From Candidatus Melainabacteria bacterium (GTDB taxonomy: Bacteria > Cyanobacteriota > Vampirovibrionia > Vampirovibrionales > Vampirovibrionaceae), in NCBI GenBank assembly GCA_902168245.1, contig CABHPA010000085.1:14805-78804 (forward strand): 64,000 nucleotides of DNA. The letters run 5' to 3'. The stretch's first letter is position 1, and every line of letters begins with the position of its first letter. A program made the position numbers and the translations under genes. Positions 14,344-52,622 of the stretch are shown here, one piece after another. Under the pieces are notes generated by a model. It did no database searches. It was given only the letters and a program-made list of their open reading frames with translations, and had not been told where the DNA came from.

Positions 14344-15609
14344 TTATTCCTGCACAGGCGCAATTGAGGACAAGCTCCGTAAATCGCTCACCAACGCCAG
14401 ACCGGCTTCCGCATGCCGCCGCAATTCTTGCAAGACCCTCAATCGCTTTTTAGCGGCTTCAGAAGCGTGGCTTTCATGCTGCCCGAGCGCGGCATAACGG
14501 GCAATGGCATCCAGATGCCCCTGTAGTTCCTGTCCCCTGGCATCCAGCAGGTCGCTCTTTTTTTGCAGCGCCTGAATCTGCTCCTGCATAATCTTTTCCT
14601 GGTAAAACACCATGGCTAAATGTTCGGCCATGCCTTTTACAAAAAATATTTCCTGCTCGCTCCAGGGGTCAGGTTCCAGCTTGTGAAAGACCAGCACCTG
14701 CATCAGCCGGTCGTGATGCAAAACCGGCACGGTAATAATGCTGCGAATATCATACTCTCTGGAAAAATGACGCCATTCCTCGTTGCTGCCCACCACGGCG
14801 TCATTATAGGTATCCGCTGAAACCGCCATTTCCTTTTGAGCGGCAATAGCCAGGTAAGGGCAGAACTCCCAGGGCGGCATAAGGCCGGTAAAGGGTTTGA
14901 CCGACACATGGCTACGGTACTCATAGCGCACCGGGCAAACCGCATCGCCGTCAAATTCAATGATAAAGGCCCGGTTCGCCTTTAACGCCTTCGCCATTTC
15001 CGCAATCGCCACGGCAAAAAGGTTGTTCCGCCCAGCGGATTGACGCACGATCTGCAACACTTCCCGACTTTTCTTTTCCCAGTCGTACAGAGACCAGTAA
15101 CGCTCCTTGCTAAGCTGCAAGGCCAACTCCGACATTTTTTGTCCACTGGCCACATCCCGAATAAAGCAACGCGTGTAAACCGATTGATTATCCCCCGATA
15201 CGCTGCCGGAACTGATTAACACCTTGCGAATGTCCCCATTCCGGCAACGCAAACTGGCCGGATAACCCTGCAAGGTTTCCTGGTTCCTGAAACGCTGGAG
15301 AATATCTCGGCCTTCGCTCTTCTGTTCATGAAACCGGGACAGGGAGCGACCAATACAAGCTTCAGGCCGATAACCCACCAGCTCGGCCCAGGCGTCATTG
15401 GCCCTCAAAATCAGCCCTTCGGCGCTGAGCCATAAAAAACCCGCCTCGCCCCTGGCGAAAAGGTTCCAAAGACCTTCCTCATCGCGGCAAGCCTGGGTCG
15501 CATCATCCCGCTGCAACCATTCCGCACCCAAAGCATCCTGCTTGGACATGTGCTGATATTTTTGATTCGCCGCAATCTGAACCGACCGTTCGGCATACTT
15601 CGCAATCAC
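14344..15609 (-). CDS. PAS-GAF sensor protein with C-terminal coiled coil (no recognisable output domain)
   Basis: PAS-like region (WLSAEGLILRANDAWAELVGY...), GAF-like central region, Glu/Leu-rich tail. Confidence 0.55.
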   Translation of the reverse strand: MIAKYAERSVQIAANQKYQHMSKQDALGAEWLQRDDATQACRDEEGLWNLFARGEAGFLWLSAEGLILRANDAWAELVGYRPEACIGRSLSRFHEQKSEGRDILQRFRNQETLQGYPASLRCRNGDIRKVLISSGSVSGDNQSVYTRCFIRDVASGQKMSELALQLSKERYWSLYDWEKKSREVLQIVRQSAGRNNLFAVAIAEMAKALKANRAFIIEFDGDAVCPVRYEYRSHVSVKPFTGLMPPWEFCPYLAIAAQKEMAVSADTYNDAVVGSNEEWRHFSREYDIRSIITVPVLHHDRLMQVLVFHKLEPDPWSEQEIFFVKGMAEHLAMVFYQEKIMQEQIQALQKKSDLLDARGQELQGHLDAIARYAALGQHESHASEAAKKRLRVLQELRRHAEAGLALVSDLRSLSSIAPVQE

Positions 15610-39946: not shown

Positions 39947-40612
39947 ATGACCGACATGTTTCACAGTCTCTACAACCGAAGCACGGCCAGCATCGCACCA
40001 GCCATAGAGCAGGCCGACAAAGCGGGCGATAAAACCTTTTTAAACTGGCCCGCCAGCTACCTGGACGGCTTCCAGGCGTTCGATCCCGATCATTATAGGC
40101 TGGAAGTGTGCGGCCTGGTGGACAAGCCCCAAGCCTTCAGCCTGAAAGACTTGACCGGCTTTACACGCATCCAGCAGAACCGACGGCTGGTATTCGCCGA
40201 TGGTTATACCTTCAAGGCCACCTGGGAAGGATTTGTGGTGCATGAATTACTGCATCGGGTTTCCCCCCGGCCCGAAGCCAAGTTTCTCATCCAGACCAAC
40301 CTGGCAGGGCAGGTGGAATGCATTCCCCTGAAAGATTTATATACCCAGCGCGCGCTATTCAGCCTGAGGGTGGGTGGAAAAGCCCTTCCCGCAATTTATG
40401 GCGGGCCGCTCCGGTTGCTGGTGTTCGATCGATACGCGCACAAGGGGCTGGGCCAAATTACCCGACTGGAGCTGAGCGAAGAGGAAGCCCCAGGCTATTT
40501 CACCAGCAAGGGCTACCAGCCGGAAGCGCAAATTGAGCCGGGCGACTACTACGCCACCGATCTTCAAGCAATGCAAACTATTAAGACCCCAGGCGAAGTG
40601 ACTCAATGGTAG
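39947..40612 (+). CDS. Molybdopterin-binding oxidoreductase (sulfite-oxidase-fold Moco domain only)
   Basis: About 221 aa with Oxidored_molyb-like pattern (GLVDKPQAFSLKDL..., GGPLRLLV). Confidence 0.6.
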   Translation: MTDMFHSLYNRSTASIAPAIEQADKAGDKTFLNWPASYLDGFQAFDPDHYRLEVCGLVDKPQAFSLKDLTGFTRIQQNRRLVFADGYTFKATWEGFVVHELLHRVSPRPEAKFLIQTNLAGQVECIPLKDLYTQRALFSLRVGGKALPAIYGGPLRLLVFDRYAHKGLGQITRLELSEEEAPGYFTSKGYQPEAQIEPGDYYATDLQAMQTIKTPGEVTQW

Positions 40613-40804: not shown

Positions 40805-42097
40805 ATGAAAAATAATATTTCACCGCGAAACAGGCCGCTTACACTGGTAGTGGGAGTCGTTCTGGCTTCCGGGGTTTTGCTAGGACAAACATTACCGGCC
40901 TTGGCAATTGGCCCCATGGCCGCCAAAAACCAATGGCCCACCCGCGATTTTCTGCCACCCATCGCCAGCATTAACCCCAAGCTGCAAGACATTCAAAAAG
41001 CCAAAGCAGAAACGGATAACACCGTGGAAACCATCGCCTTTACTGCCGTCAGCAGCCCGGTTTTAAAAACCACCCCCAAAGTGGAGCGCCTGGCCACCGA
41101 CCTTAGCAGCCAGATTAAAAACGAGCAGTTGGAAGGCGTTCTGGAAATCCAGAAAAAGGTAGACTCTGCGGATCTCGAAGCCCTATGGAAGGCCACCGTG
41201 GAGAAAAACCCGGTCATTCGGTTCTCGCTGGAAAAGCTGGCGACGCCTGCCGACTTGCAAAGCAAGCAATCCAGCAAGTTCCTGAACAAGACCCTCAGCC
41301 TGCTGATTCAAGGCAGCACTATGGCCGCCACCATGATTCCCGGCGCCAATGCAGGGGTTGGCGCTTACCGCAACATGGGCACCATGGCCGTAGGCAACGC
41401 CCTGCAAAACCTGACCAGCGGCAAAACGCAGATGACTCCCGGCAGCCTTTCCGCAACCGAGCAGATTCAATTGGCCGGGCTGATTGATGAACTGAAGATC
41501 AAGCTGATCCATAACTACCAGGATTATAAAAGCACCTTGCAGGCGCTGGCCGAAAGCCATGAGGGGACGCTGAAAAACAACAACCTGTATTCCAAGGCGC
41601 TTTCCTCCAAGAATGATTTGGCGGTTATGGCCGCCGGAACGGCCTACTATCAGGCGCTGATGACCGAAACCGCCCTTCGCCAGAAAGCAAAGCTGTACCG
41701 CTTGCAACTGGAGCGACTGGCCGGGACTGAAACCGTTAGCACCTTGCAACTGGCCGTCCAGGTTCCAGACAATGTGACCGCATCCAATACAGATACCATT
41801 AGCACACAAGCCAGCCTGTCGAGCGAATCGCCTATCGGGCCTGAATTACCCCCGGCAACAACAGGCAGGCCCGCCAGCGATACCGCCAAAACGGCATCCC
41901 CCATTGATGGCTTGCCGGAGGCGCTGGAAATTGGCCCCCATTTGAGCCAGGAGAACATGGAACCTGTTGGCCCTCCCATGCCCAAAAGCATAGCCAAACA
42001 AATGCAGCAAGCCGCCACAAAGGCAAAAGCGGCATCAACCCGCAATGTGCCTGCCCCTATTCCGGACAAGATTCTGGGACATAAGGAGAACCCATAA
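40805..42097 (+). CDS. Secreted hypothetical protein (paralog A)
   Basis: Signal peptide; shares motifs with the next gene (LEALWKATVEKNPVIRFSLEKL vs IGMLWEAAVERSGTIRYAIEKL; IHNYQDYKSTLQALAES vs ITLYYNYRHAKERLTLAQEA). Confidence 0.5.
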   Translation: MKNNISPRNRPLTLVVGVVLASGVLLGQTLPALAIGPMAAKNQWPTRDFLPPIASINPKLQDIQKAKAETDNTVETIAFTAVSSPVLKTTPKVERLATDLSSQIKNEQLEGVLEIQKKVDSADLEALWKATVEKNPVIRFSLEKLATPADLQSKQSSKFLNKTLSLLIQGSTMAATMIPGANAGVGAYRNMGTMAVGNALQNLTSGKTQMTPGSLSATEQIQLAGLIDELKIKLIHNYQDYKSTLQALAESHEGTLKNNNLYSKALSSKNDLAVMAAGTAYYQALMTETALRQKAKLYRLQLERLAGTETVSTLQLAVQVPDNVTASNTDTISTQASLSSESPIGPELPPATTGRPASDTAKTASPIDGLPEALEIGPHLSQENMEPVGPPMPKSIAKQMQQAATKAKAASTRNVPAPIPDKILGHKENP

Positions 42098-42099
42098 GC

Positions 42100-43065
42100 A
42101 TGTTGACCCGTCTGGCCCAGTTTCGCACCGCAACCCAGCCCACCTACCGATTGCTTGCCATGCTGGCGCTGGCAGGAAGCTTATGCGGCATTCAGCCCAT
42201 TAACGCCCATGCCGCAGCCAAAACAGGCAATACAAAAGCGTCCGCCCAAACCCAGCCCGCCAAATTAAACGCGTCCGCTACCAAGACGGCAATCCCGGTT
42301 TTGGATGAAGCCAGCCTGAAAGCGATTGAGGAAGCCTCTCGCAAGCTGGACCCCGAAACCCGAAACACCATGAACCGCCTGTCGGAAGCCCTTCACCAGG
42401 AAGACAAGGCCATATACAACGAACTGCGGGACGATGAGGAGTTATCGGTCACGGATATCGGGATGCTCTGGGAAGCTGCGGTCGAGCGCAGCGGCACCAT
42501 CCGCTACGCCATAGAAAAACTCTCTCGCAAGGATGCCACCGGAAAGCCCGTGGACAACGACAGTTTTTCCAAACGGGTCGTGCAAAACCTGGTGCATTTG
42601 GGCGGTGTGGCTGGCACCATGTGGACGGGTACGCCCGCCGGGCTGATTGGCTCCAACATGGTACAGAACATTATGAGCGGCAACCCGCAGGAATCCGCCC
42701 TAAGTCAGGTCACGGACGCCGATATGGTTATTCTGGCCAAAGAAGTGGAAGCGCTGCAATCGCAGCTCATCACGCTGTATTACAACTACCGTCACGCCAA
42801 AGAGCGGCTTACCCTGGCCCAGGAAGCCAGTTCCACTATCTCCAAGTACTATGACCATACCAGCCATATCGAAAACTCGACCGCCGAGGCGCTCCAACCA
42901 TTGATTCAATCTATTTACGAAAACAGCAAGCAAGATGAGCAGACAGCCCATCAAGCCTATAACAGCAGTAAATCGGCCCTAACCCTGGTGGTTGGCCCAG
43001 ATGCCGTAGCGGCCCTGGAGCAAGGCAATAAAACCGGCAGCAGTGCAAGCATTTCGGGAAGTTAG
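42100..43065 (+). CDS. Secreted hypothetical protein (paralog B)
   Basis: Signal peptide; paralogous to the 40805-42097 product; 2-nt intergenic gap. Confidence 0.5.
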   Translation: MLTRLAQFRTATQPTYRLLAMLALAGSLCGIQPINAHAAAKTGNTKASAQTQPAKLNASATKTAIPVLDEASLKAIEEASRKLDPETRNTMNRLSEALHQEDKAIYNELRDDEELSVTDIGMLWEAAVERSGTIRYAIEKLSRKDATGKPVDNDSFSKRVVQNLVHLGGVAGTMWTGTPAGLIGSNMVQNIMSGNPQESALSQVTDADMVILAKEVEALQSQLITLYYNYRHAKERLTLAQEASSTISKYYDHTSHIENSTAEALQPLIQSIYENSKQDEQTAHQAYNSSKSALTLVVGPDAVAALEQGNKTGSSASISGS

Positions 43066-43557: not shown

Positions 43558-44040
43558 TTATTTCAAAGCAGCTTTTTTCTGGTTCCTCAGCGAATTCAGG
43601 AACACCAAGTTCCCAATTGCCACGTAAGTGAGGAACAGAATGGAAATGGAGTTGATCATCCAGGTGTGGTGCATGCCGTCGTTCACCCAGCCTGCTTTCC
43701 AGGCATGCCCATGCTCTGCGCAAATCAACCCGTAAATAGATAGCAGAAGCATATAGAAGGCCAAAAAACGAGGGGCCAAGCAAATAATGGCAACCGCGCC
43801 CAAAAACTCGGCAATGAGCAGAAGGCCGTAGCCACTCCAAACCACGTCCGCAGAACTGAAAGGGTTGTGCAACGCGCCAGACAAGGTCAGTGGAATTGCG
43901 TTCATCACCAGAAAGAATGTAGCCGGAATCATAATCGGCCAGAATTCCTTAAAAAACCAGTTCCAACGACCTTCCGGGCATGAAATGTCGAAATCGTGAT
44001 GAGCCTCGTGGCTCTCGTGATGATTAGGCATCTGTGACAT
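43558..44040 (-). CDS. DoxX-family-like membrane protein
   Basis: 160 aa, 4 predicted TM, His-rich N-terminus; family assignment by eye. Confidence 0.4.
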   Translation of the reverse strand: MSQMPNHHESHEAHHDFDISCPEGRWNWFFKEFWPIMIPATFFLVMNAIPLTLSGALHNPFSSADVVWSGYGLLLIAEFLGAVAIICLAPRFLAFYMLLLSIYGLICAEHGHAWKAGWVNDGMHHTWMINSISILFLTYVAIGNLVFLNSLRNQKKAALK

Positions 44041-44178: not shown

Positions 44179-44595
44179 CTATGGCTTTTTGGCGGCGGCT
44201 GGGCTGGGAAGCTGTTTGCAGGCAACCACAAACTGGCTCACCATGTCGCTCAACTTGTCATATTCCAGAGCGGATAACCAGTAGGCTTCCACTCGCCGCT
44301 TGTCCACGCTGGGCTTCAGCTTGGGCATGCGCTTGCCAATCAGGCGTTCCCGGCAGAATTTATTGCCTTCACGGTAATGGCAATCACCCATTCGGCAACC
44401 AACGGCAAAGGTGCCGCTTGCACCGTTCTTAAGCGCCGTTTCCAGCATAATGGGCTGAATTTGCCCGCTACAGGGTACTTGAATAATCTTTACCGTAGGG
44501 TTATCCAGCAGGTAGCCATTGTCATCCAGCTTGCCAGCGAAGTCCACGCTCCGCTCACAGACAATGCCGATTACTTTGTTATTCTCAGTGGTCAT
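44179..44595 (-). CDS. MvhD/FlpD-like hydrogenase iron-sulfur subunit family protein
   Basis: GCRMGDCHYREGN core motif and IQVPCSGQIQP segment characteristic of PF02662. Confidence 0.55.
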   Translation of the reverse strand: MTTENNKVIGIVCERSVDFAGKLDDNGYLLDNPTVKIIQVPCSGQIQPIMLETALKNGASGTFAVGCRMGDCHYREGNKFCRERLIGKRMPKLKPSVDKRRVEAYWLSALEYDKLSDMVSQFVVACKQLPSPAAAKKP

Positions 44596-44634: not shown

Positions 44635-45801
44635 TTATGTAGTTGAACTCAATAGCGAGGCTTCGATTTCAGCCAGCACGGAACTCGTCTCGCGACGGGG
44701 GATTTCAATCGCCTTGAAGGCGCAAGCCCCTACGCACAGACCACAGTTTGCGCAACGCCCCGCATCCACCACCGCAAGACGCTTGAAGCGTGTCCCATCA
44801 TTTCCGCGATCCACCATGGTAATCGCCTCATAAGGGCAATCCTGGTAACAAAGGGAACAGCCAGTACAATTCTCGCGAGTGACTTGTGCGAATTGGCCGC
44901 GTAATGCCTTCTTTTGCAGATAAGGCAAGACCAGCAAACCCACCGGCACAGCCAGCACCAGCAACAACACTGCGACAGGCGGCACATTTTGAGCAGCCAG
45001 GTATTGAGGCCAAGCGTACAGCAAGTCGAAATAAACTTCGGAAGATATGCTGCCCAGGCCATTCAGCAGCGGCGCGGCGCCCGCGTCATGCGCACCGTAA
45101 GGCAGTACGCCCAGGCCGATCGGAAACACAGAGGAAACGATGAACAAGCCGCCAGCCATCATCACCACCAAGGGCAACGGCGGTTCGGAAACCGGACGGG
45201 TAATCCGCAGGTAATGCAGCCACAACATGAACATCATAAACAGCGGAATGCCAAGGTGCAGGAACATAAAGCGGGTCAGCGTGTAATCGGAAACGACCTT
45301 GCCCGCCATCAGCGCTTCCGCAACTGGGGCGCCCACCACGGGCAAACTCTTCAGCAGGTTAAAGGTAATATTGGCCAAGGTAACGGCTTCCTGATCCCAG
45401 ATCATCAGGTACCCGGTCAAACCGATGATAAAGGTAATCGTCAACAGGATAACGCCGGTAATCCAGGGCAGAATCCGGTACTCGCGATAACGATCCGTAA
45501 ACCAGACCCGCAACATGTGCAGAATGACGAAAATCATCATGCCGTCGCTGGCATATCGGTGTATGCCGCGGAACAAGTTCCCGAAGGGCAGTTCATAGGT
45601 AATATAGTGAACAGAGGCGTATGCGTTAGCCAGCGTTGGCTGGTAGTACGCGAACAAAAGCAGACCGGACAAGAACAGCGCCCAGATGAAGAAATTGGGT
45701 AGCGCGCCATGATAATAAAATGGATTGTATCTCTGGGAGAAAAGGGTGTTCAGGCCTTTCTCAATCCATAAGGTCGCTTTCTGTAAGGGGTCGGTATACA
45801 C
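44635..45801 (-). CDS. Di-heme cytochrome b (N-terminal domain) fused to 2x[4Fe-4S] ferredoxin domain
   Basis: His81/His95 and His182/His196 at the canonical 14-residue spacings in helices B and D (GIHRY...ILHMLRVWF; FLHLG...WLHYL). C-terminal CTGCSLCYQDCP and CANCGLCVGACA motifs. Confidence 0.65.
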   Translation of the reverse strand: MYTDPLQKATLWIEKGLNTLFSQRYNPFYYHGALPNFFIWALFLSGLLLFAYYQPTLANAYASVHYITYELPFGNLFRGIHRYASDGMMIFVILHMLRVWFTDRYREYRILPWITGVILLTITFIIGLTGYLMIWDQEAVTLANITFNLLKSLPVVGAPVAEALMAGKVVSDYTLTRFMFLHLGIPLFMMFMLWLHYLRITRPVSEPPLPLVVMMAGGLFIVSSVFPIGLGVLPYGAHDAGAAPLLNGLGSISSEVYFDLLYAWPQYLAAQNVPPVAVLLLVLAVPVGLLVLPYLQKKALRGQFAQVTRENCTGCSLCYQDCPYEAITMVDRGNDGTRFKRLAVVDAGRCANCGLCVGACAFKAIEIPRRETSSVLAEIEASLLSSTT

Positions 45802-45823: not shown

Positions 45824-46138
45824 CTATTTCTTTAATTCCTGGTCATTCAAGCTGGTCGAGATGTCCTCTTGCGCGCCAAGCAAAATGTAGGACACGCTAA
45901 TCGCCAGAAGAACCCCGCCGATGGCCAAACTGTATTGCTTGATGCCAGGGAGAATTTTCGCTTGAAAATCAGCCAAGATGGCCCCAGGATCAGCCGCAGG
46001 ATTGGCCAGTTTCACCAATCCTTCCGCATTCCACATCATAATGGGGCCTAACAAAGCGGCAACGCCAATAAAGAAGGCTAACCATTCTCTCCAGGTAAGG
46101 CTGGCAATACACTTGATAACATTGTTTAAAGGCTTCAT
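45824..46138 (-). CDS. Small 2-TM membrane protein (operon accessory subunit)
   Basis: 104 aa; start overlaps the stop of the next upstream gene. Confidence 0.4.
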   Translation of the reverse strand: MKPLNNVIKCIASLTWREWLAFFIGVAALLGPIMMWNAEGLVKLANPAADPGAILADFQAKILPGIKQYSLAIGGVLLAISVSYILLGAQEDISTSLNDQELKK

Positions 46139-46458
46139 TAAAAATTTTCCTTTTGTTCAAGGACAGATCTCAGCAGAAATCGCTTTTTAATCATCCATTC
46201 AAAAAGCCGGATCGGTTTTTCAACACGCCCACGGCTTTTTTCCTGGACATAACTATCGTAGACCAACACAATCAAGACCTGGGCCAACAAGAACATTACC
46301 AATCCCCAAATTAACCCATTATTTAGCGTGGGAATCGAGGCAAATGCCTTGTAAGTTTGAAACCAAAGGGACATCAGGAAAGTAGCCGCCAGAAACAACG
46401 TCCACCACATCCCGCGGTTCAATGGCTTCGTCACTGAAGAATTGGCCTGGTCCGCCAT
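46138..46458 (-). CDS. Small 2-TM membrane protein (operon accessory subunit)
   Basis: 106 aa; start overlaps the cytochrome b stop at 46458. Confidence 0.4.
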   Translation of the reverse strand: MADQANSSVTKPLNRGMWWTLFLAATFLMSLWFQTYKAFASIPTLNNGLIWGLVMFLLAQVLIVLVYDSYVQEKSRGRVEKPIRLFEWMIKKRFLLRSVLEQKENF

Positions 46459-47969
46459 TAGGCAGGCGCTCCTTCCAGTTGCAGGGCGGCTTCGCGCTCA
46501 TCACGCTTACGGCGAGCCATCCAGAAGAGGAACCCGGCCACCAGCATTTGCAGAACGGAGAATCCGACCCACAGCATGCTCCAGTACAAGTTGGTGAAGT
46601 TAATACTGACCGCAGCGCCATGGAAAGTCGCTTCAAACCAGGCAATCAGGCTGTGACCGCCGAAAGCCCCGTTCAGTTTGGTGTTCTCAACAACCAGATG
46701 CCAGAAGAACAAGTACCAAGTGCTTATAACCAGATTAAAGAGTACCCAGACGGTCATGGGCAAACGTTGCTTGTACATCGTCCAGTGCCAGAACTGCCCA
46801 ATGGTGATCATGGAAATCAGGTGGGCGAACCAGTACGGCGGATCATTTTCGATGTTGGCCATGTTGGCGATAATCAGCAAGGAGAACACGATGAACTCCA
46901 TTGCGGCCATAATGCCAATCGTGGTGAAAATCGGGCGTTTCAGCCAGTGACGCTCGGAACCAAAATCCAGAAAGGTCAGCCCAATGGTCACAAAGGGAAT
47001 GCCCAGCGTCCACAGGGTTGCCCAGTAGGGATCCATGTACTTCAGCAATTGATAGAGAGCCAAGAAGTACCAGTCGGATAGAATCGGAAGAGGCGTTACC
47101 TCAGGGTTGGAACGAGTTCCGGATTCTGCCGGGAAAATAATAGCCGTGAAAACCAGCAAGGCAATAATCAGGAACATCACCGGCTTCTTGAGGTTAATCC
47201 GTTTCATCCGGTTCTTGTAGAAGTACAGCTCAGACAGCACCAGCAGAATCAAAGACAATGCAAAGTGCAGGGAGTAGAAACGAGTCATGGTCGCTTGACC
47301 AATGGAACTGCCGCCCATCAGGATTTGCGATGTACTAAAACCCTGGTGCGTCAGGTTACCGACCAGCTTAGTGCCAGCCCCAATAATGTTAGGAATCAGC
47401 CAGGAATTTTTATAGTGCGCAAAATCCCACGGCCAAGCCCAGTTGGCAGGGGTAATATCCAGGTACGTAGGGAACGTGGCGAATACCTTGGTCGCCCAAA
47501 AGGCCCGCTGGTTCCAGATCAACAGGTAGCCGCTCAAACCGGAATACATGGCGATAACCAGCAGCAGAATCCCCAGGATAAAGGTCAATTCGCCCTTGTT
47601 TTTGTATTCGGCGGTAAACCACATCCGATAAACCCGCAATGTGGCGGCAATAATCATGGCATCCCCACTGTATTTATGGAGACCGCGCAAAACCGAGCCT
47701 AAAGGATGGTGAGACAAGAGATCAACGGAGTTGAACGCCTGGGCGGTGGTTGGCAGGTACAACGCCACCAGCACAATGCCGGTAAACAACACCAACATCC
47801 AGGCCAGGTAATACATACCACCCAGTTGATACCAGGGCGATTCAGCCTGTAAATCCGCCTTGGTTTCATCAAACAGGTCAATCTTTTGGACACGCTCCTT
47901 GACCCATTGAAACCCCTGAGCAGGCAAGGCTTTCACATCAAACGAATTCGTAGCAGTCATTCTAAGCAA
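46458..47969 (-). CDS. Cytochrome b of a bc-type complex (full-length b + subunit-IV-like domain, C-terminal extension)
   Basis: Cyt b helix B/D motifs (LRGLHKYSGDAM, TRFYSLHFAL) and a PEWY-region variant (SDWY). 8-nt overlap with the Rieske gene. Confidence 0.7.
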   Translation of the reverse strand: MLRMTATNSFDVKALPAQGFQWVKERVQKIDLFDETKADLQAESPWYQLGGMYYLAWMLVLFTGIVLVALYLPTTAQAFNSVDLLSHHPLGSVLRGLHKYSGDAMIIAATLRVYRMWFTAEYKNKGELTFILGILLLVIAMYSGLSGYLLIWNQRAFWATKVFATFPTYLDITPANWAWPWDFAHYKNSWLIPNIIGAGTKLVGNLTHQGFSTSQILMGGSSIGQATMTRFYSLHFALSLILLVLSELYFYKNRMKRINLKKPVMFLIIALLVFTAIIFPAESGTRSNPEVTPLPILSDWYFLALYQLLKYMDPYWATLWTLGIPFVTIGLTFLDFGSERHWLKRPIFTTIGIMAAMEFIVFSLLIIANMANIENDPPYWFAHLISMITIGQFWHWTMYKQRLPMTVWVLFNLVISTWYLFFWHLVVENTKLNGAFGGHSLIAWFEATFHGAAVSINFTNLYWSMLWVGFSVLQMLVAGFLFWMARRKRDEREAALQLEGAPA

Positions 47970-48612
47970 TCCCTCCCGCTTCTAACGCGGTAATGACCAA
48001 TGTAGCGTCTTTAATGTCGTAGGTAAACTGTCTTGGCGGACGGGGAGCCGGGCCGCTGACCACCTTGCCGGGAACGTTCTTGCCATTGACTTCCTGCGTT
48101 TGCAGCGGATCGTATACGCTCAAATGGCAGGGACAGGCAAACAGAGGGTTTTTGGCGGAAGGATAGTTGTAAGCAGCCGCCTCAGCAGGATCCGGCAAGA
48201 AGTTGAATACACAACCCATATGCGGGCAAATCCGGCTAACCACGATGAAATCCGGCTTGCCGTCCTTATCTTCCGGCAACCGAACCACAAAGCCTGGGAT
48301 CTTACTCGCCTGGAAGTGACGGAAAGTATATTCCTTGCTGCGTTGACTGAAAGTAAACGGCTGGAACGACCAAGGAGAGGGAAAGTCAGAGAGATTGAAG
48401 GTCACCTGCCGTTCCGCTTGAGGCATATCGGGAGGGGCCACCAAGCCAGACTTCCCTTGCCAGTCGGTCGGATTTCCGGAAACGTCCCAATCCGTAGTTT
48501 GCAACGGCCCCGAAGAGGGGCGAAGATAACGGAACAAGGGCGATACAAACAGCGCCAAAGCGCCAAGCACCGGGATGCTAACAATCAGCTTGAGAAAATC
48601 ACGTCTATTCAT
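47962..48612 (-). CDS. Rieske [2Fe-2S] iron-sulfur protein (Tat signal)
   Basis: RRDFLK twin-arginine motif; CPHMGC and CPCHLSVY boxes. Confidence 0.85.
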   Translation of the reverse strand: MNRRDFLKLIVSIPVLGALALFVSPLFRYLRPSSGPLQTTDWDVSGNPTDWQGKSGLVAPPDMPQAERQVTFNLSDFPSPWSFQPFTFSQRSKEYTFRHFQASKIPGFVVRLPEDKDGKPDFIVVSRICPHMGCVFNFLPDPAEAAAYNYPSAKNPLFACPCHLSVYDPLQTQEVNGKNVPGKVVSGPAPRPPRQFTYDIKDATLVITALEAGGIA

Positions 48613-49738
48613 TCAGCTTTTTCCCTTCCATGGAAGCGTGATTAACACCTGCTACGGGCTGAGCCAACGGCTCGGCATGCTCCACCGGCGGCTTTTCCAG
48701 GGTCAACCCGCCGGTAATGGGATCCGCAGAGGGCATATTAATAGCCTTCCCCTTATAGGGGCCATCATTTTTCATGGCGTTCGTCCAAGGGCGATTGCTG
48801 CCAACCGGCCTGCACACATTGATTTGGGCCAAACCGAGAGGCGGGGTCATCGCCTCGGGCAATTCCGGTTTCAAGTCGTTGTTATAGGACAGGGAGCGAA
48901 CGTGACGTACCAGGTTGGTAATCAGGTTCTCATTGAACATGTAGGTGATCTTGCCGGTATCCTTATCCACGTTCACATCACCATACCAGGACGGCATCGC
49001 GGACGGATAAATCCCTTCGCAGATATACTTGAACAACTGGGCGTCCGTCCGGTTGTAAACCCGGTTGTACTGACGGAAATTAGCAGGCGCTGGCATAAAG
49101 TTGTGAACCAGCGCGCCATCGTGCAATTCGTGGTTGCCAGTTTTACCCGTGTAGAGAGGGCCGTCGGCATTGCCTTTTGTGCCGTGACAAACCGCGCAGT
49201 TACCGCCGAAAATGGCGGCCACGTCGACTTTGGGATCCGGCGACTTGATATCGCCAGCCCCGGCCAAATAACGCGTGTAGAAGATAACCGCCCAACGATC
49301 GTCATGGTTGATCGCATCCCTAAAAGCTGGATGGTGAGCGGGCAAAAGCTTTTTGCGCTCAGGCGTTGGCATCACCACTTCGGGAGCGCCGCCTTCCGTC
49401 AGCATCGAATACATATCAATCGGGGTGGTAAAAGCCAAGTCTTCTTTGACTTTCTGATTTTGCCAGGATGCTTGCGTATGACATTTGACGCACTGCTGCC
49501 GGAAAATTTCCCGCCCCTTCATCAGGGAAGGCGGCTGGGAAGGAAACGCGAAGTCCATATTAGCCAGCTTCTGATCCACCACAGGCTCCGAAAAAAGCGC
49601 CTTGTTGGTGTTTTCAATTTTAGTGGGCTGCCCGGTACACCCGCTGAGCAAGACGGTCAGCGAGACAACGGCAGTCAGGGCCAAGGCTCTTGCGAATGAG
49701 ACCTTGCGGGAAGTCTGCTTTTTTAAAGACAAGTCCAT
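48605..49738 (-). CDS. Di-heme c-type cytochrome lipoprotein (bc-complex cytochrome c subunit)
   Basis: Lipobox LLSGC; two CxxCH motifs (CVKCH, CAVCH). Confidence 0.75.
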   Translation of the reverse strand: MDLSLKKQTSRKVSFARALALTAVVSLTVLLSGCTGQPTKIENTNKALFSEPVVDQKLANMDFAFPSQPPSLMKGREIFRQQCVKCHTQASWQNQKVKEDLAFTTPIDMYSMLTEGGAPEVVMPTPERKKLLPAHHPAFRDAINHDDRWAVIFYTRYLAGAGDIKSPDPKVDVAAIFGGNCAVCHGTKGNADGPLYTGKTGNHELHDGALVHNFMPAPANFRQYNRVYNRTDAQLFKYICEGIYPSAMPSWYGDVNVDKDTGKITYMFNENLITNLVRHVRSLSYNNDLKPELPEAMTPPLGLAQINVCRPVGSNRPWTNAMKNDGPYKGKAINMPSADPITGGLTLEKPPVEHAEPLAQPVAGVNHASMEGKKLNE

Positions 49739-49759: not shown

Positions 49760-49933
49760 TTAGTATCCGAAAAACTGAATCCAGGAAATAGAGGCCCATC
49801 CGACAATCAGGATGAAGAAGAGCCAAAGAAACCAAGGCACCTTATGCTCGCCTACCTCAAATTCGTCATAGGAGGCAGATGATTCTGCGCCACCGTGGTT
49901 TAAATCCTGTTCGATTTGACTATTTTCAGCCAT
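49760..49933 (-). CDS. Small single-TM protein (57 aa), possible oxidase accessory subunit
   Basis: Below the ORF-track cutoff, translated by hand: MAENSQIEQDLNHGGAESSASYDEFEVGEHKVPWFLWLFFILIVGWASISWIQFFGY. Lies between the oxidase and bc genes. Confidence 0.35.
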   Translation of the reverse strand: MAENSQIEQDLNHGGAESSASYDEFEVGEHKVPWFLWLFFILIVGWASISWIQFFGY

Positions 49934-49953: not shown

Positions 49954-50124
49954 TTAATCTTCATCATGCAGCATGCGAAATTTGGATTCTTCCAAGCCTT
50001 CCAGCTTCCCGTTTTTAGAGGCCCACATCATAGCGGCGAAAGCCAACAGGAAAAATAGGATGCAGATGGCGAAAGCCGCAATGTAGCCAGGGCCGATACC
50101 GCCGGAAAGACAAGAGGGGCACAT
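49954..50124 (-). CDS. CcoS/FixS-like cbb3 oxidase maturation small protein (56 aa)
   Basis: Translated by hand: MCPSCLSGGIGPGYIAAFAICILFFLLAFAAMMWASKNGKLEGLEESKFRMLHDED. TM followed by W..K.GQ/K..DLEG pattern like CcoS. ATG overlaps the ccoO stop. Confidence 0.45.
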   Translation of the reverse strand: MCPSCLSGGIGPGYIAAFAICILFFLLAFAAMMWASKNGKLEGLEESKFRMLHDED

Positions 50125-51179
50125 TAGTGTCTTCCTCCCCCAGGTACCAGTTCGGGGTTTTCAGCATGCAGTTCGGACAAACGCTCAATTTCGTTATAGT
50201 TCTTATCCATCAATTGAGGCTGATCCAGTTGAGAATAGTTGGTAACTTCAACCTGCCCGGTAGGTGTAGACGGATCAACCGGCAAGGTCTTGATAAAGGC
50301 CACCAGGTAAGCCAGTTGCTGCTCGCTCAGACTACGTCCCCAGCGAGGCATCCGGGTTCCGGCGACACCTTCCTTGAGCCGCCAGTAGTACAGCGCATCG
50401 GTGTATGCTCGGTAGAAAGGACGGGTCAGATTGGCGGGTTTTTTAATCATGGAAGAGCTAATCGGGCCGTTGCCGCGACCGGTTACACCGTGGCACACCG
50501 CGCAGTTTTGCATGTAAATCCCGCGACCGGAGTTGGCAATCGCAGAGTTGTTGGTATCCACGTTCTTGGAGACACGCTTCCATTCATCGCGCATTTCCTG
50601 GGGCGCTTCCAGCCAGGTCAGACGATCATGGGCGGGAGCGGCGCTATGGCCACCAGCGACCTCTTTATGCTCAGGCTTACCGTCCAGGCCACGACGGCGG
50701 GCTTCCAATTCTCGCTCGCGTCCCAGGGTTTGCAGGTAAGCGACGAGATCTTTCATGTCCCTTTCGGACAAATAGCTGAAAGAAGGCATTAAAGAGCCGG
50801 GTTTCACGGCGCGAGGCTGCATATGGTGCGCCACATGCCAAGCGTCAGGATATTTGCCGCCCACGTTGGAAAGATCCGGGCCGGTACGCTCGGTACCCAG
50901 CAAGTGCGGGGTTTGGTTCACATAATCGCCCGCCAGAACCATCTCGCCCATTTCCCGATCCTGGTAGCGGACGAACTGGGTATGGCAATAGACGCATCCT
51001 TCACGCTTGTACACTTCACGGCCATGCGCTTCGCTGAGGGTATAGACATAAGCGCCCTGCTTGGTCGCTTCCGGCTGGAAGGTGGTTGCAGGTAAGATGG
51101 CGGTTACGAAGATGATTGTGAGGAAGATGAGGGCCACAAAGACAGCGGCAATCAGATAGTTGAGAATTCTATGTTGCAT
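50124..51179 (-). CDS. ccoO: cbb3-type cytochrome c oxidase subunit CcoO fused to an additional mono-heme cytochrome c domain
   Basis: N-terminal TM + GREVYKREGCVYCHTQFVR...TGPDLSNVGGKYPDAWHVAH matches the CcoO signature; second CxxCH (NCAVCHG) in the C-terminal half. Confidence 0.7.
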   Translation of the reverse strand: MQHRILNYLIAAVFVALIFLTIIFVTAILPATTFQPEATKQGAYVYTLSEAHGREVYKREGCVYCHTQFVRYQDREMGEMVLAGDYVNQTPHLLGTERTGPDLSNVGGKYPDAWHVAHHMQPRAVKPGSLMPSFSYLSERDMKDLVAYLQTLGRERELEARRRGLDGKPEHKEVAGGHSAAPAHDRLTWLEAPQEMRDEWKRVSKNVDTNNSAIANSGRGIYMQNCAVCHGVTGRGNGPISSSMIKKPANLTRPFYRAYTDALYYWRLKEGVAGTRMPRWGRSLSEQQLAYLVAFIKTLPVDPSTPTGQVEVTNYSQLDQPQLMDKNYNEIERLSELHAENPELVPGGGRH

Positions 51180-51215: not shown

Positions 51216-52622
51216 TTATACATAGGCGATCCCGGTGGGGGATTCCGGCAGAGGCTCCGCCGACTTGGAGAATACAGTCTTATAAATGTTCAACATGTAG
51301 AGGATCTGGCCCGCAATCAACATGATGCCGGAGATAAAACGAACCAGGAAGTAAGGCACCATCTCCATCACCCACTGATCGTAAGGCAGCGTGAAGTGCC
51401 AGCCAGCGGCCTGAATCAAGCCAGCAATGGTCAGGGCGATCATCATCACGATCCATCCGATGAAACTCAGCCAGAAATGCCAGATGGCCAGCGCGCGGCT
51501 ATAGATTTTACGGCCGGTGATTTTGGGAATGATGAAGTAAGAGGCGGAAAACACGATGAAAGAGAAGGTCGCAAGCAAGGCCAGGTGAGCGTGACCCACC
51601 ACCCAGTTGGAGAAGTGCAGGTACCAGTTGATACTACGGGTTGCCTGGAACGGCCCCTGCATACAAGTCAGCAGGTAGGCCAAACCAGCCGCCATGGCGA
51701 ACCGCATGGGGATATGATCCGCCATCAGGTGCCATTTGCCCTTCAGGGTCATAAAGAAGTTGGTTTGAACCGTCAGTACGGGAATCAACAAGAAAACGCT
51801 GGAGATGACCGCAATCGCTTTCAGCCACTCAGGAACTGGGGATTGCAGGATGTGGTGGGTACCCGTAGGCGCATAGAACATCCCAATCGTCCAGAAGCCA
51901 ATCATGGACAAGGTGTGGCTGTAGAGAGGATTGCCGGAGAAACGGGGCAGCAGGTAGTACAAAATACCGACCCCACCCACCGTAAACCACATACCCAGAA
52001 TGTTGTGACCATAGAACCAGCCCGCAATGGCGTCATTCAGGCCAGTGAACTGTACAAACGCCCGGTTACCGACCACGTACACAATCGGGAACCAGAACAA
52101 AGCGCCCATAAAGTACCAGAGACTGACGTACCATTTTTTCTCACTGCCGGTAAAGATGGTCATATAAACGTTCAAACCCACCAGCAGAAGGGCGCCCAGC
52201 ACCAACCAGTCGAAGGGGCCATTTAACTCGGCGTATTCACGGCCTTCGGTGTAGCCGTTCATAATGCTCCACACCCCCAGAATCACCGTCAGATTCCAGA
52301 GAAACAGGGTAATGTTGCCGAGCCGCTCGCTCCACATGCTTTTACGACCGGACAGCACCGGCACAATGTAGAACATGCAGGACACGTAACCCATGGACAG
52401 CCAGCCAATCAGCACCGTGTTAATGTGCGCAGGCCGCAAACGACCAAAGGCCAACTGGGGAATGCCGTGGATAATATCGGGGTTGGACATCAGCAGAGCC
52501 GCAATCAGCCCGAAAAGCATGCCAAATACTAAATAGAAGATAGCGCATAGCAAAAAGTTTCGGCTGGCGCTGTATGGCTCATCACTAAACGCGGCACGCC
52601 ATAAATTGGTAAGGGCTTGCAT
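51216..52622 (-). CDS. ccoN: cbb3-type cytochrome c oxidase subunit I (CcoN)
   Basis: 468 aa, 12+ TM, heme-copper oxidase His patterns (HINTVLIGW, WFYGHNILGMWF, VVGHAHLALL). Confidence 0.8.
   Translation of the reverse strand: MQALTNLWRAAFSDEPYSASRNFLLCAIFYLVFGMLFGLIAALLMSNPDIIHGIPQLAFGRLRPAHINTVLIGWLSMGYVSCMFYIVPVLSGRKSMWSERLGNITLFLWNLTVILGVWSIMNGYTEGREYAELNGPFDWLVLGALLLVGLNVYMTIFTGSEKKWYVSLWYFMGALFWFPIVYVVGNRAFVQFTGLNDAIAGWFYGHNILGMWFTVGGVGILYYLLPRFSGNPLYSHTLSMIGFWTIGMFYAPTGTHHILQSPVPEWLKAIAVISSVFLLIPVLTVQTNFFMTLKGKWHLMADHIPMRFAMAAGLAYLLTCMQGPFQATRSINWYLHFSNWVVGHAHLALLATFSFIVFSASYFIIPKITGRKIYSRALAIWHFWLSFIGWIVMMIALTIAGLIQAAGWHFTLPYDQWVMEMVPYFLVRFISGIMLIAGQILYMLNIYKTVFSKSAEPLPESPTGIAYV

Follow-up and report, generated by a model that had tools for sequence, protein, structure and literature searches.

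The subject of this study is a stretch of 64,000 nucleotides from Candidatus Melainabacteria bacterium (GenBank assembly GCA_902168245.1, contig CABHPA010000085.1, forward-strand positions 14,805 to 78,804), hereafter called the window, and in it a gene for a long cytochrome b in which b6 and a subunit IV-like part are fused (cytb1, 46458..47969, minus strand). We found that this protein, assigned to the cytochromes b by Pfam, AlphaFold2 (AF2), and Foldseek, carries the His pair for haem bL only, while both ligand positions of haem bH are occupied by other residues. The same gene cluster encodes cytbFd (44635..45801, minus strand), a six-transmembrane (TM) cytochrome b with all four His (H81/H95/H182/H196) and a fused cytoplasmic 2x[4Fe-4S] ferredoxin domain. 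Together, a one-haem cytb1 and a two-haem cytbFd point to an undescribed rewiring of the respiratory Q-cycle, and the conserved module around cytb1 is apparently uncharacterised. We found no literature that combines "SDWY", the motif of cytb1 at the quinol oxidation (Qo) site, with "cytochrome b", none that joins MvhD with cytochrome b, Rieske, and cbb3, and no prior description of the cytb1 family or its module, although the family might overlap with clade G' of PMC5600118.

Haem ligands and Qo site of cytb1

Counted from its TTG start, the open reading frame (ORF) of cytb1 comprises 503 amino acids. The first-pass annotation, which was made from the sequence alone, had read this frame as a bc-complex cytochrome b, and this part of its reading stands; the protein is full-length. 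The TTG, which overlaps the stop codon of the adjoining Rieske gene (window 47958-47969), is the less likely start; the true start is probably the ATG at 47960 (residue 4), because a GGGAGGG ribosome-binding site lies upstream of it and the database orthologues are 500 amino acids long. Residue numbers given here count from the TTG and equal the database numbering plus three. The adjacency of the Rieske gene recurs in the related loci in which the contig extends upstream of cytb1.

The protein matched PF00033 (Cytochrome_B; 80.1 bits, cut-off 27.2), PF13631 (Cytochrom_B_N_2; 61.5 bits, above the Pfam cut-off), and the subunit IV-like PF00032 (Cytochrom_B_C; 25.9 bits, cut-off 20.7). According to phmmer, its closest solved relatives are b6 chains (E = 4e-27) and subunit IV. 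The AF2 model, which was computed from 80 relatives, reached a predicted local distance difference test score (pLDDT) of 89.3 and a predicted template modelling score (pTM) of 0.87, and its best Foldseek matches were bc1 cytochromes b, with about 400 columns superposed and 8smr_D among the matches. Eight canonical TM helices are followed by two to three C-terminal helices that are not conserved. We also noticed a variable insertion of about 40 residues (residues ~170-210, window 47340-47460) between the cd region and helix D, which divides the Pfam Cytochrome_B match in two and varies in length by clade.

The ligands of haem bL (bp) are in place: His98 in helix B (CAT, 47676..47678, minus strand) and His235 in helix D (CAC, 47265..47267, minus strand), both invariant, correspond to b6 His86 and His187 in phmmer alignments with solved b6, and MAFFT placed them alike. 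The positions of the haem bH (bn) ligands are taken by Arg112 in helix B (CGG, 47634..47636, minus strand) and, in helix D, by Tyr249 (TAC, 47223-47225), the last residue of Glu247-Leu-Tyr249 (47223..47231, minus strand). In the phmmer alignment, "aatlRvyrmwf" stands opposite "mmilHvfrvyl", so that R112 equals b6 His100, a ligand of haem bn, and "selYfyknr" stands opposite "mllHflmir", so that Y249 equals b6 His202. BLASTP against the in-window paralogue cytbFd (28% identity) set R112 opposite H95 and Y249 opposite H196, and a MAFFT alignment of 149 representatives gave identical columns, with H/H/H/H in 106/106 canonical sequences. The spacing in helix D is one residue shorter than the 14 of b6, the gap being placed after H235 by both phmmer and MAFFT. 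The Qo motif reads S298-D-W-Y301 (47067..47078, minus strand) and lines up with PEWY; it retains the acidic residue, the Trp, and the Tyr and has Ser in place of Pro. All of these assignments, which the first-pass annotation had made by eye, were thus borne out by alignment and by reading of the codons.

A shift of register that would restore a bH His was rejected. Three alignment methods and four independent alignments concur, and no proper alignment moved a His into either position; in the alignment of 120 homologues, moreover, His is absent from segments 103-118 and 236-256 in all family members, so the flanking helix segments cannot supply a ligand. Other sources fared no better. The only invariant His in the entire protein are H98 and H235, and those of the C-terminal extension are not conserved. 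As for the small membrane proteins encoded downstream, sm1 lacks a conserved His, and sm2 shows little conservation of any kind. Haem ci was also rejected as a cofactor of cytb1, because the position of CxGG in b6 reads WYQLGG, with Gln replacing Cys. Judged by its sequence, cytb1 fails one defining feature of the cytochrome b superfamily, the four axial His.

This composition is shared by a whole family. Among 120 homologous proteins with 46-100% identity to cytb1, position 112 is Arg in 99 and Lys in 21 and never His, and position 249 is Tyr in 117, Arg in two, and Trp in one. H98, H235, E247, R115, and the segment TPLPILSDWYFLAL are essentially invariant in this set; the SDWY motif within that segment is invariant in the cytb1 family, as are IWNQRAFWATKVFATFPTY and the cluster boxes of the Rieske protein. 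A phmmer search of 1.84 billion representatives returned only 27 at E <= 1e-30, followed by a steep fall to generic cytochrome b scores, which sets cytb1 apart as a discrete clade. The full-length members of this clade all have R/K at position 112; at position 249 they have Y or R, and a single sub-clade still has H there. Over 89 loci, the residues at positions 98, 112, 235, and 249 read HRHY (51), HRHR (15), HKHY (12), HKHR (9), and HRHH (1). A scan of one genome per species detected a cytb1 relative in 307 species, including Vampirovibrio chlorellavorus NCIMB 11383 (86% identity), other Vampirovibrionales, Obscuribacterales, and Caenarcaniphilales, and further Holophagaceae, Solibacteraceae, and two metagenome-assembled genomes (MAGs) labelled gammaproteobacterial.

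The unusual residues could in principle stem from a mistake in sequencing or assembly or from decay of the cytochrome b gene into a pseudogene, and the codons of R112 and Y249 (CGG, TAC) are stated to lie one nucleotide from the His codon CAY. However, the substitutions are common to close orthologues and clade representatives alike (120 proteins, 89 loci) in independent assemblies, the genome of the V. chlorellavorus isolate among them. The frame is also intact, and 53 columns are invariant across 20 diverse members. We rejected an artefact on the strength of this conservation across independent assemblies, and its probability is negligible. The pattern speaks for a genuine cytochrome b under purifying selection.

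Along with the ligands, the family has lost the B-C-loop Arg126 (present in 104/106 canonical sequences) and the helix-D Pro239 (103/106). The helix-C Gly133, found in 106/106 canonical sequences, is Ala or Ser in most members, yet Gly in this window. The P-side G64 and G144/G147 are invariant, as is G50 at the N-side of helix A. Because the ligands, Arg126, Pro239, and, in most members, the haem-accommodating helix-C Gly are lost while the P-side Gly and the Qo elements do not vary, these data argue that the N-side haem site of cytb1 decayed while quinol oxidation and haem bL were kept. Glu247 (47229-47231) does not vary in any of the 89 loci, and every clade has a basic residue (R/K) at position 112. 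These charged residues in the N-side half of the helix bundle look like positive maintenance and not like random decay.

One sub-clade (P0248, P0250, P0251, P0253, P0255; L007:10001-11755) reads H-R-H-H, with the bH His of helix D kept and helix B already Arg. This suggests that the helix-B ligand of haem bH was lost first.

Haem bH might also still be bound in cytb1, as an unusual high-spin N-side haem with Tyr249 (His249 in some clades) as single ligand and R/K112 on the distal side. Tyr is known as a haem ligand, and such a site would accommodate the invariant Arg115 and helix-A Gly50, the His249 kept in the sub-clade, and the basic character of residue 112. Its weakness lies in the 24/89 loci, acidobacterial members among them, in which R249 is combined with R/K112; these proteins have no possible ligand, and the remainder of the protein is equally conserved. 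The exchange of the helix-C Gly and the loss of the near-invariant Arg126 also speak against a retained haem. In addition, Tyr-ligated haems have very low potentials and would be poor acceptors for electrons from bL. We consider a retained haem bH very unlikely.

The partner cytbFd and the conserved module

The first-pass annotation had used the fused paralogue at 44635-45801 only as an alignment reference and had overlooked its role as an obligate genomic partner of cytb1. In the ferredoxin domain of cytbFd, the Cys are arranged as C312/315/318/322 and C350/353/356/360, and these eight Cys and the four His are invariant in the cytbFd family. The helix bundle of the model (pLDDT 86.6) superposes on b6 with 1.7 A over 177 columns. 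For cytbFd, a Qo site was rejected, as the E-F loop, where PEWY is located, shows no conservation across the Melainabacterial family, although distant members carry a "VDWF" remnant there. The position of CxGG in b6 reads FYYHGA, and N26, Y30, and H31 are nearly invariant at the N-side end of helix A. The two proteins show complementary predicted losses: cytb1 has a Qo site and bL without bH, and cytbFd has bL' and bH' without a Qo motif.

Two N-side segments of cytbFd are near-invariant, residues 22-36 ("YNPFYYHGALPN", with His where b6 has CxGG) and residues 100-113 ("FTDRxREYRIxPW"). Candidate roles for these segments are a quinone site and the surface to which the Fe-S domain docks.

Gene order is identical in every locus examined, from Melainabacteria, in which V. 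chlorellavorus also has the module, to Acidobacteriota. Downstream of cytb1, cytbFd and the gene for an MvhD/FlpD-type protein (FlpD) follow in 75/77 loci with at least 3 kb of downstream sequence. The two exceptions, L032 and L033, are sister Vampirovibrionales MAGs with no cytbFd-FlpD pair downstream of cytb1. The MAG of L032 (GCA_035285385.1) nevertheless has the pair as a two-gene unit on another contig (L092), and cytbFd-FlpD is a separable genetic unit because it is found there on its own. Divergent cytbFd proteins (36-45% identity to that of the window; two were checked) occur in the same module. Pairwise-distance matrices of all module proteins correlated with r = 0.93-0.97, and the module is thus inherited as a block. 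The highest-correlating pair is cytb1-cytbFd (r = 0.970; partial r = 0.668), although not decisively so, and we regard this as weak evidence. The genomic partnership of cytb1 and cytbFd is obligate.

In the window, the module genes are co-directional on the minus strand. The first is a CcoN-like catalytic subunit of a C-family (cbb3) haem-copper oxidase (51216..52622), followed by CcoO (FixO) fused to a cytochrome c domain (50124..51179), a 56-aa FixS/CcoS-like protein (49954..50124), and a 57-aa single-TM protein (49760..49933), in whose place related loci also have a tiny ORF. Next come a dihaem cytochrome c with two CxxCH motifs, probably a lipoprotein (48605..49738), and the Rieske [2Fe-2S] protein with a twin-arginine signal and conserved CPHxGC and CPCH boxes (47962..48612). 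Downstream of cytb1 there are always two small ORFs, here sm1 (106 aa, 46138..46458) and sm2 (104 aa, 45824..46138), both small TM proteins. The order ends with cytbFd and the MvhD/FlpD-type protein (44179..44595; PF02662, 78.9 bits, cut-off 22.3), whose four conserved Cys (C13, C42, C67, C72) are kept in 75 orthologues and are presumed to hold a [2Fe-2S] cluster.

Two Caldisericia loci (L093:946-8471 and L094:4661-12186) contain a variant of the core module. The order is Rieske, cytbFd, FlpD, a 329-aa polyferredoxin-like protein, a ShyB/AsrA-like and a ShyC/AsrB-like subunit, cytb1, and two small TM proteins. This cytb1 has 686 aa, the ligand pattern H-R-H-Y, and the motif ILPDWYFLF. The 13-14 kb contigs contain no oxidase genes, and no cytochrome c is encoded nearby in these anaerobes. 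Because this set persists in Caldisericia without cbb3, the conserved core consists of Rieske, a one-haem cytochrome b, a dihaem cytochrome b-ferredoxin, and MvhD. The ShyB/AsrA-like and ShyC/AsrB-like subunits are predicted to form an FAD/NAD(P)-binding module, and the cytoplasmic wire of such a system could end in an NAD(P)(H) module.

Directly downstream of FlpD in the window lies the gene for a His-rich TM protein of 160 aa (43558..44040, minus strand) with the N-terminus MSQMPNHHESHEAHHD..., which had no Pfam or NCBIfam match and is confined to Vampirovibrionales loci. Its membership in the module is uncertain, and it might be a metal-handling or assembly factor. A few kb downstream of the respiratory module, on the opposite strand, a 221-aa protein (39947-40612, plus strand) matches the molybdopterin-binding Oxidored_molyb family (E = 3.8e-19). 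The neighbouring genes 40805-42097 and 42100-43065 (both plus strand) encode proteins with signal-like hydrophobic N-termini, without a Pfam match, and with similar central motifs (...DLEALWKATVEKNPVIRFSLEKL... and ...DIGMLWEAAVERSGTIRYAIEKL..., respectively); this adjacent pair looks like a tandem duplication.

A proposed path for the low-potential electron

The first-pass annotation had argued that a cytochrome b with only the bL ligand pair would not support a classical Q-cycle. By analogy with engineered enzymes, cytb1 alone would indeed be unable to run one: a double knockout of haem bH (H212N in each monomer) leaves R. capsulatus bc1 without function in vivo (PMC4152375). A bc1 heterodimer with a bH knockout in one monomer and a Qo knockout in the other supports growth via the bL-bL bridge (PMC4152375; see also PMC4330944).

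We propose a relay in which quinol would be oxidised at the Qo site of cytb1. The first electron would pass through the Rieske protein and the dihaem cytochrome c to the cbb3 oxidase and O2. The second would reduce bL and, as bH is missing, would move sideways to the P-side haem of cytbFd; a cytb1:cytbFd heterodimer with a normal bL-bL bridge would be the simplest geometry for this. From there, the electron would span the membrane via the haem pair of cytbFd (bL to bL' to bH'), and bH' would communicate with the 2x[4Fe-4S] domain and MvhD, and hence with cytoplasmic redox carriers. For the relay as a whole, in which bL electrons of cytb1 would cross to cytbFd and reach the cytoplasmic Fe-S clusters, we see an even chance of being right. 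That the module is a natural heterodimeric Rieske/cytochrome b enzyme, to which cytb1 would contribute just Qo and bL and cytbFd just the transmembrane haem pair, with its low-potential branch hard-wired via 2x[4Fe-4S] and MvhD to ferredoxin/NAD(P)(H), is a reading we put forward tentatively, at somewhat less than even odds.

The wire of this relay could be used in either direction. As an inlet, which we slightly favour, ferredoxin or NAD(P)H would give the second electron for quinone reduction near bH', and N26, Y30, and H31 of cytbFd could form the quinone site. This would correspond to Mitchell's original Q-cycle, running downhill from ferredoxin/NAD(P)H to cytochrome c, and would give 2 H+/e-. 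As an outlet, the alternative, the bifurcated low-potential electron would be exported to the cytoplasm.

Alternatively, cytb1 and Rieske might act as a stand-alone quinol:cytochrome c oxidoreductase without a Q-cycle, with cytbFd-FlpD as a separate unit linked to it by co-regulation only, such as a ferredoxin:quinone oxidoreductase supplying the quinone pool. Both electrons would then leave via the high-potential chain or from bL via a P-side haem c, and bL would be a transient store or structural. The genomic separability of cytbFd-FlpD (L032/L033 vs L092) fits this view, and so does the intact high-potential chain encoded directly upstream. In addition, dihaem cytochromes b that anchor cytoplasmic Fe-S subunits are common in quinone-linked oxidoreductases (NarI/NarH, FdnI/FdnH). 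In contrast, cytb1 and cytbFd co-occur at the genome level in every case tested, across phyla and in two module types. The bL ligands and the surrounding Gly are strictly conserved, which indicates a working low-potential acceptor, and a ferredoxin:quinone reductase acting on the N-side would need no transmembrane haem pair. Engineered bc1 without bH in both monomers, as described above, loses function (PMC4152375). On balance, we consider the stand-alone enzyme unlikely, though it deserves to be weighed.

Several points weigh against the proposed relay and heterodimer. In the outlet direction, electrons bound for low-potential carriers would have to go uphill against the membrane potential, which would call for an exceptionally high Rieske potential and a strong pull from the high-potential branch. 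We infer the contact between cytb1 and cytbFd from gene content, conservation, and engineered precedent, and contact covariation would need more than the ~65 sequence pairs. Arg115 occupies the "HxxR" position, at which canonical sequences usually have Arg; it does not vary in the cytb1 family, and neither does the helix-A Gly50; given these two residues, something may still occupy the N-side pocket of cytb1. In canonical cytochrome b, the Arg of this position presumably pairs with a propionate of haem bH. One sub-clade, moreover, retains His249. The relay does not explain why Glu247 is invariant or residue 112 always basic, and no dedicated cytoplasmic partner for MvhD is encoded in the module of the window.

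If it holds, the heterodimer would add a new class to the energy-converting complexes, one present in Melainabacteria, Acidobacteriota, and Caldisericota. This would be either a ferredoxin/NAD(P)H:cytochrome c oxidoreductase working on Mitchell's original Q-cycle or an enzyme that draws on quinol to generate low-potential reductant, and the module would be what actually serves as "complex III" in the non-photosynthetic sister group of Cyanobacteria. Previous papers on Vampirovibrio, Obscuribacter, and other Melainabacteria report complex III or petB/petC beside a C-type oxidase without comment on the ligands (PMC4451040, PMC4040986, PMC6349859, PMC8235220). Such work takes cytb1 for an ordinary complex III in reconstructing how aerobic respiration arose around Cyanobacteria. 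Should cytb1 be unable to run a Q-cycle by itself, the bioenergetics of these lineages would need to be re-evaluated, including the H+/e- yield and the links to ferredoxin or NAD(P)H.

Relation to known systems

With the canonical cytochromes b of bc1, b6f (together with subunit IV), and bcc, cytb1 shares the fold, the bL His pair, the P-side Gly, and the Qo elements of the cd and ef loops. As in the canonical complexes, a Rieske gene is adjacent, and a cytochrome c and an oxidase lie downstream in the electron path. In contrast to them, the cytb1 family has R/K and Y/R at the bH (bn) ligand positions, has lost the B-C-loop Arg and, in most members, the helix-C Gly, and carries an SDWY motif at the Qo site. 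The protein further differs in the variable insertion of ~40 residues before helix D, the extra C-terminal helices, and the lack of a Cys for haem ci, and it is a single 503-aa chain where b6f has split genes for b6 and subunit IV.

Natural losses of individual ligands have been described before. Kao & Hunte 2014 regarded all four His as invariable and excluded every sequence that lacked one, a filter that would discard a family like cytb1; they read a Pyrobaculum cytochrome b without the fourth His as having lost that haem (PMC4122944). The Pyrobaculum protein is likewise a natural Rieske-type cytochrome b that lacks a bH ligand. However, its loss concerns the helix-D His only, it is archaeal and confined to one genus, and no dihaem cytochrome b-ferredoxin partner has been reported for it (PMC4122944). 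As described in PMC5600118, the cyanobacterial subfamily K has the bn His of helix 2 (B) replaced and an N-side Gly lost, and its haem number and function are called obscure. According to the same text, its members differ from cytb1 in being short (b6-length), in having E/Q instead of R/K, and in occurring in oxygenic cyanobacteria beside a normal b6f, mostly without a subunit IV of their own. The same source defines by tree a further clade, G', whose long cytochromes b lie "in large conserved operons ... of an unknown function". This clade of Dibrova et al. 2017, for which the text gives no locus tags, might overlap the cytb1 family.

In anammox bacteria, Rieske/cytochrome b genes cluster with genes for cytoplasmic Fe-S/NAD(P) proteins, and a link between the low-potential branch and NAD(P)(H) has been proposed (PMC5600118, PMC12954380). 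As described there, these neighbours recall the ShyB/ShyC-like subunits of the Caldisericia variant. The anammox cytochromes b are, however, short and belong to subfamily G as far as these texts state, and the texts mention no His loss and describe no cytochrome b-ferredoxin fusion or MvhD. The cytb1 module offers a tractable Rieske/cytochrome b case in which the low-potential branch would leave the membrane, as has been proposed for anammox. The bc1-cbb3 supercomplexes of P. aeruginosa (8smr) and R. capsulatus are similar in that Rieske/cytochrome b feeds a C-family oxidase via membrane-bound c haems, but they contain a canonical four-His homodimer encoded in a separate operon.

The closest functional parallel to the proposed heterodimer is the engineered, cross-inactivated bc1 (Ekiert et al. 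2014, PMC4152375; Czapla et al. 2013, PMC4330944), in which an active Qo site without bH is likewise combined with an intact bH without Qo. Those enzymes are laboratory constructs derived from a homodimer, whereas here the halves of the putative heterodimer would be encoded by two diverged genes, the intact one with a cytoplasmic Fe-S domain. The cytb1-cytbFd pair offers a natural test of bL-bL transfer between monomers, which has so far been shown only in engineered enzymes.

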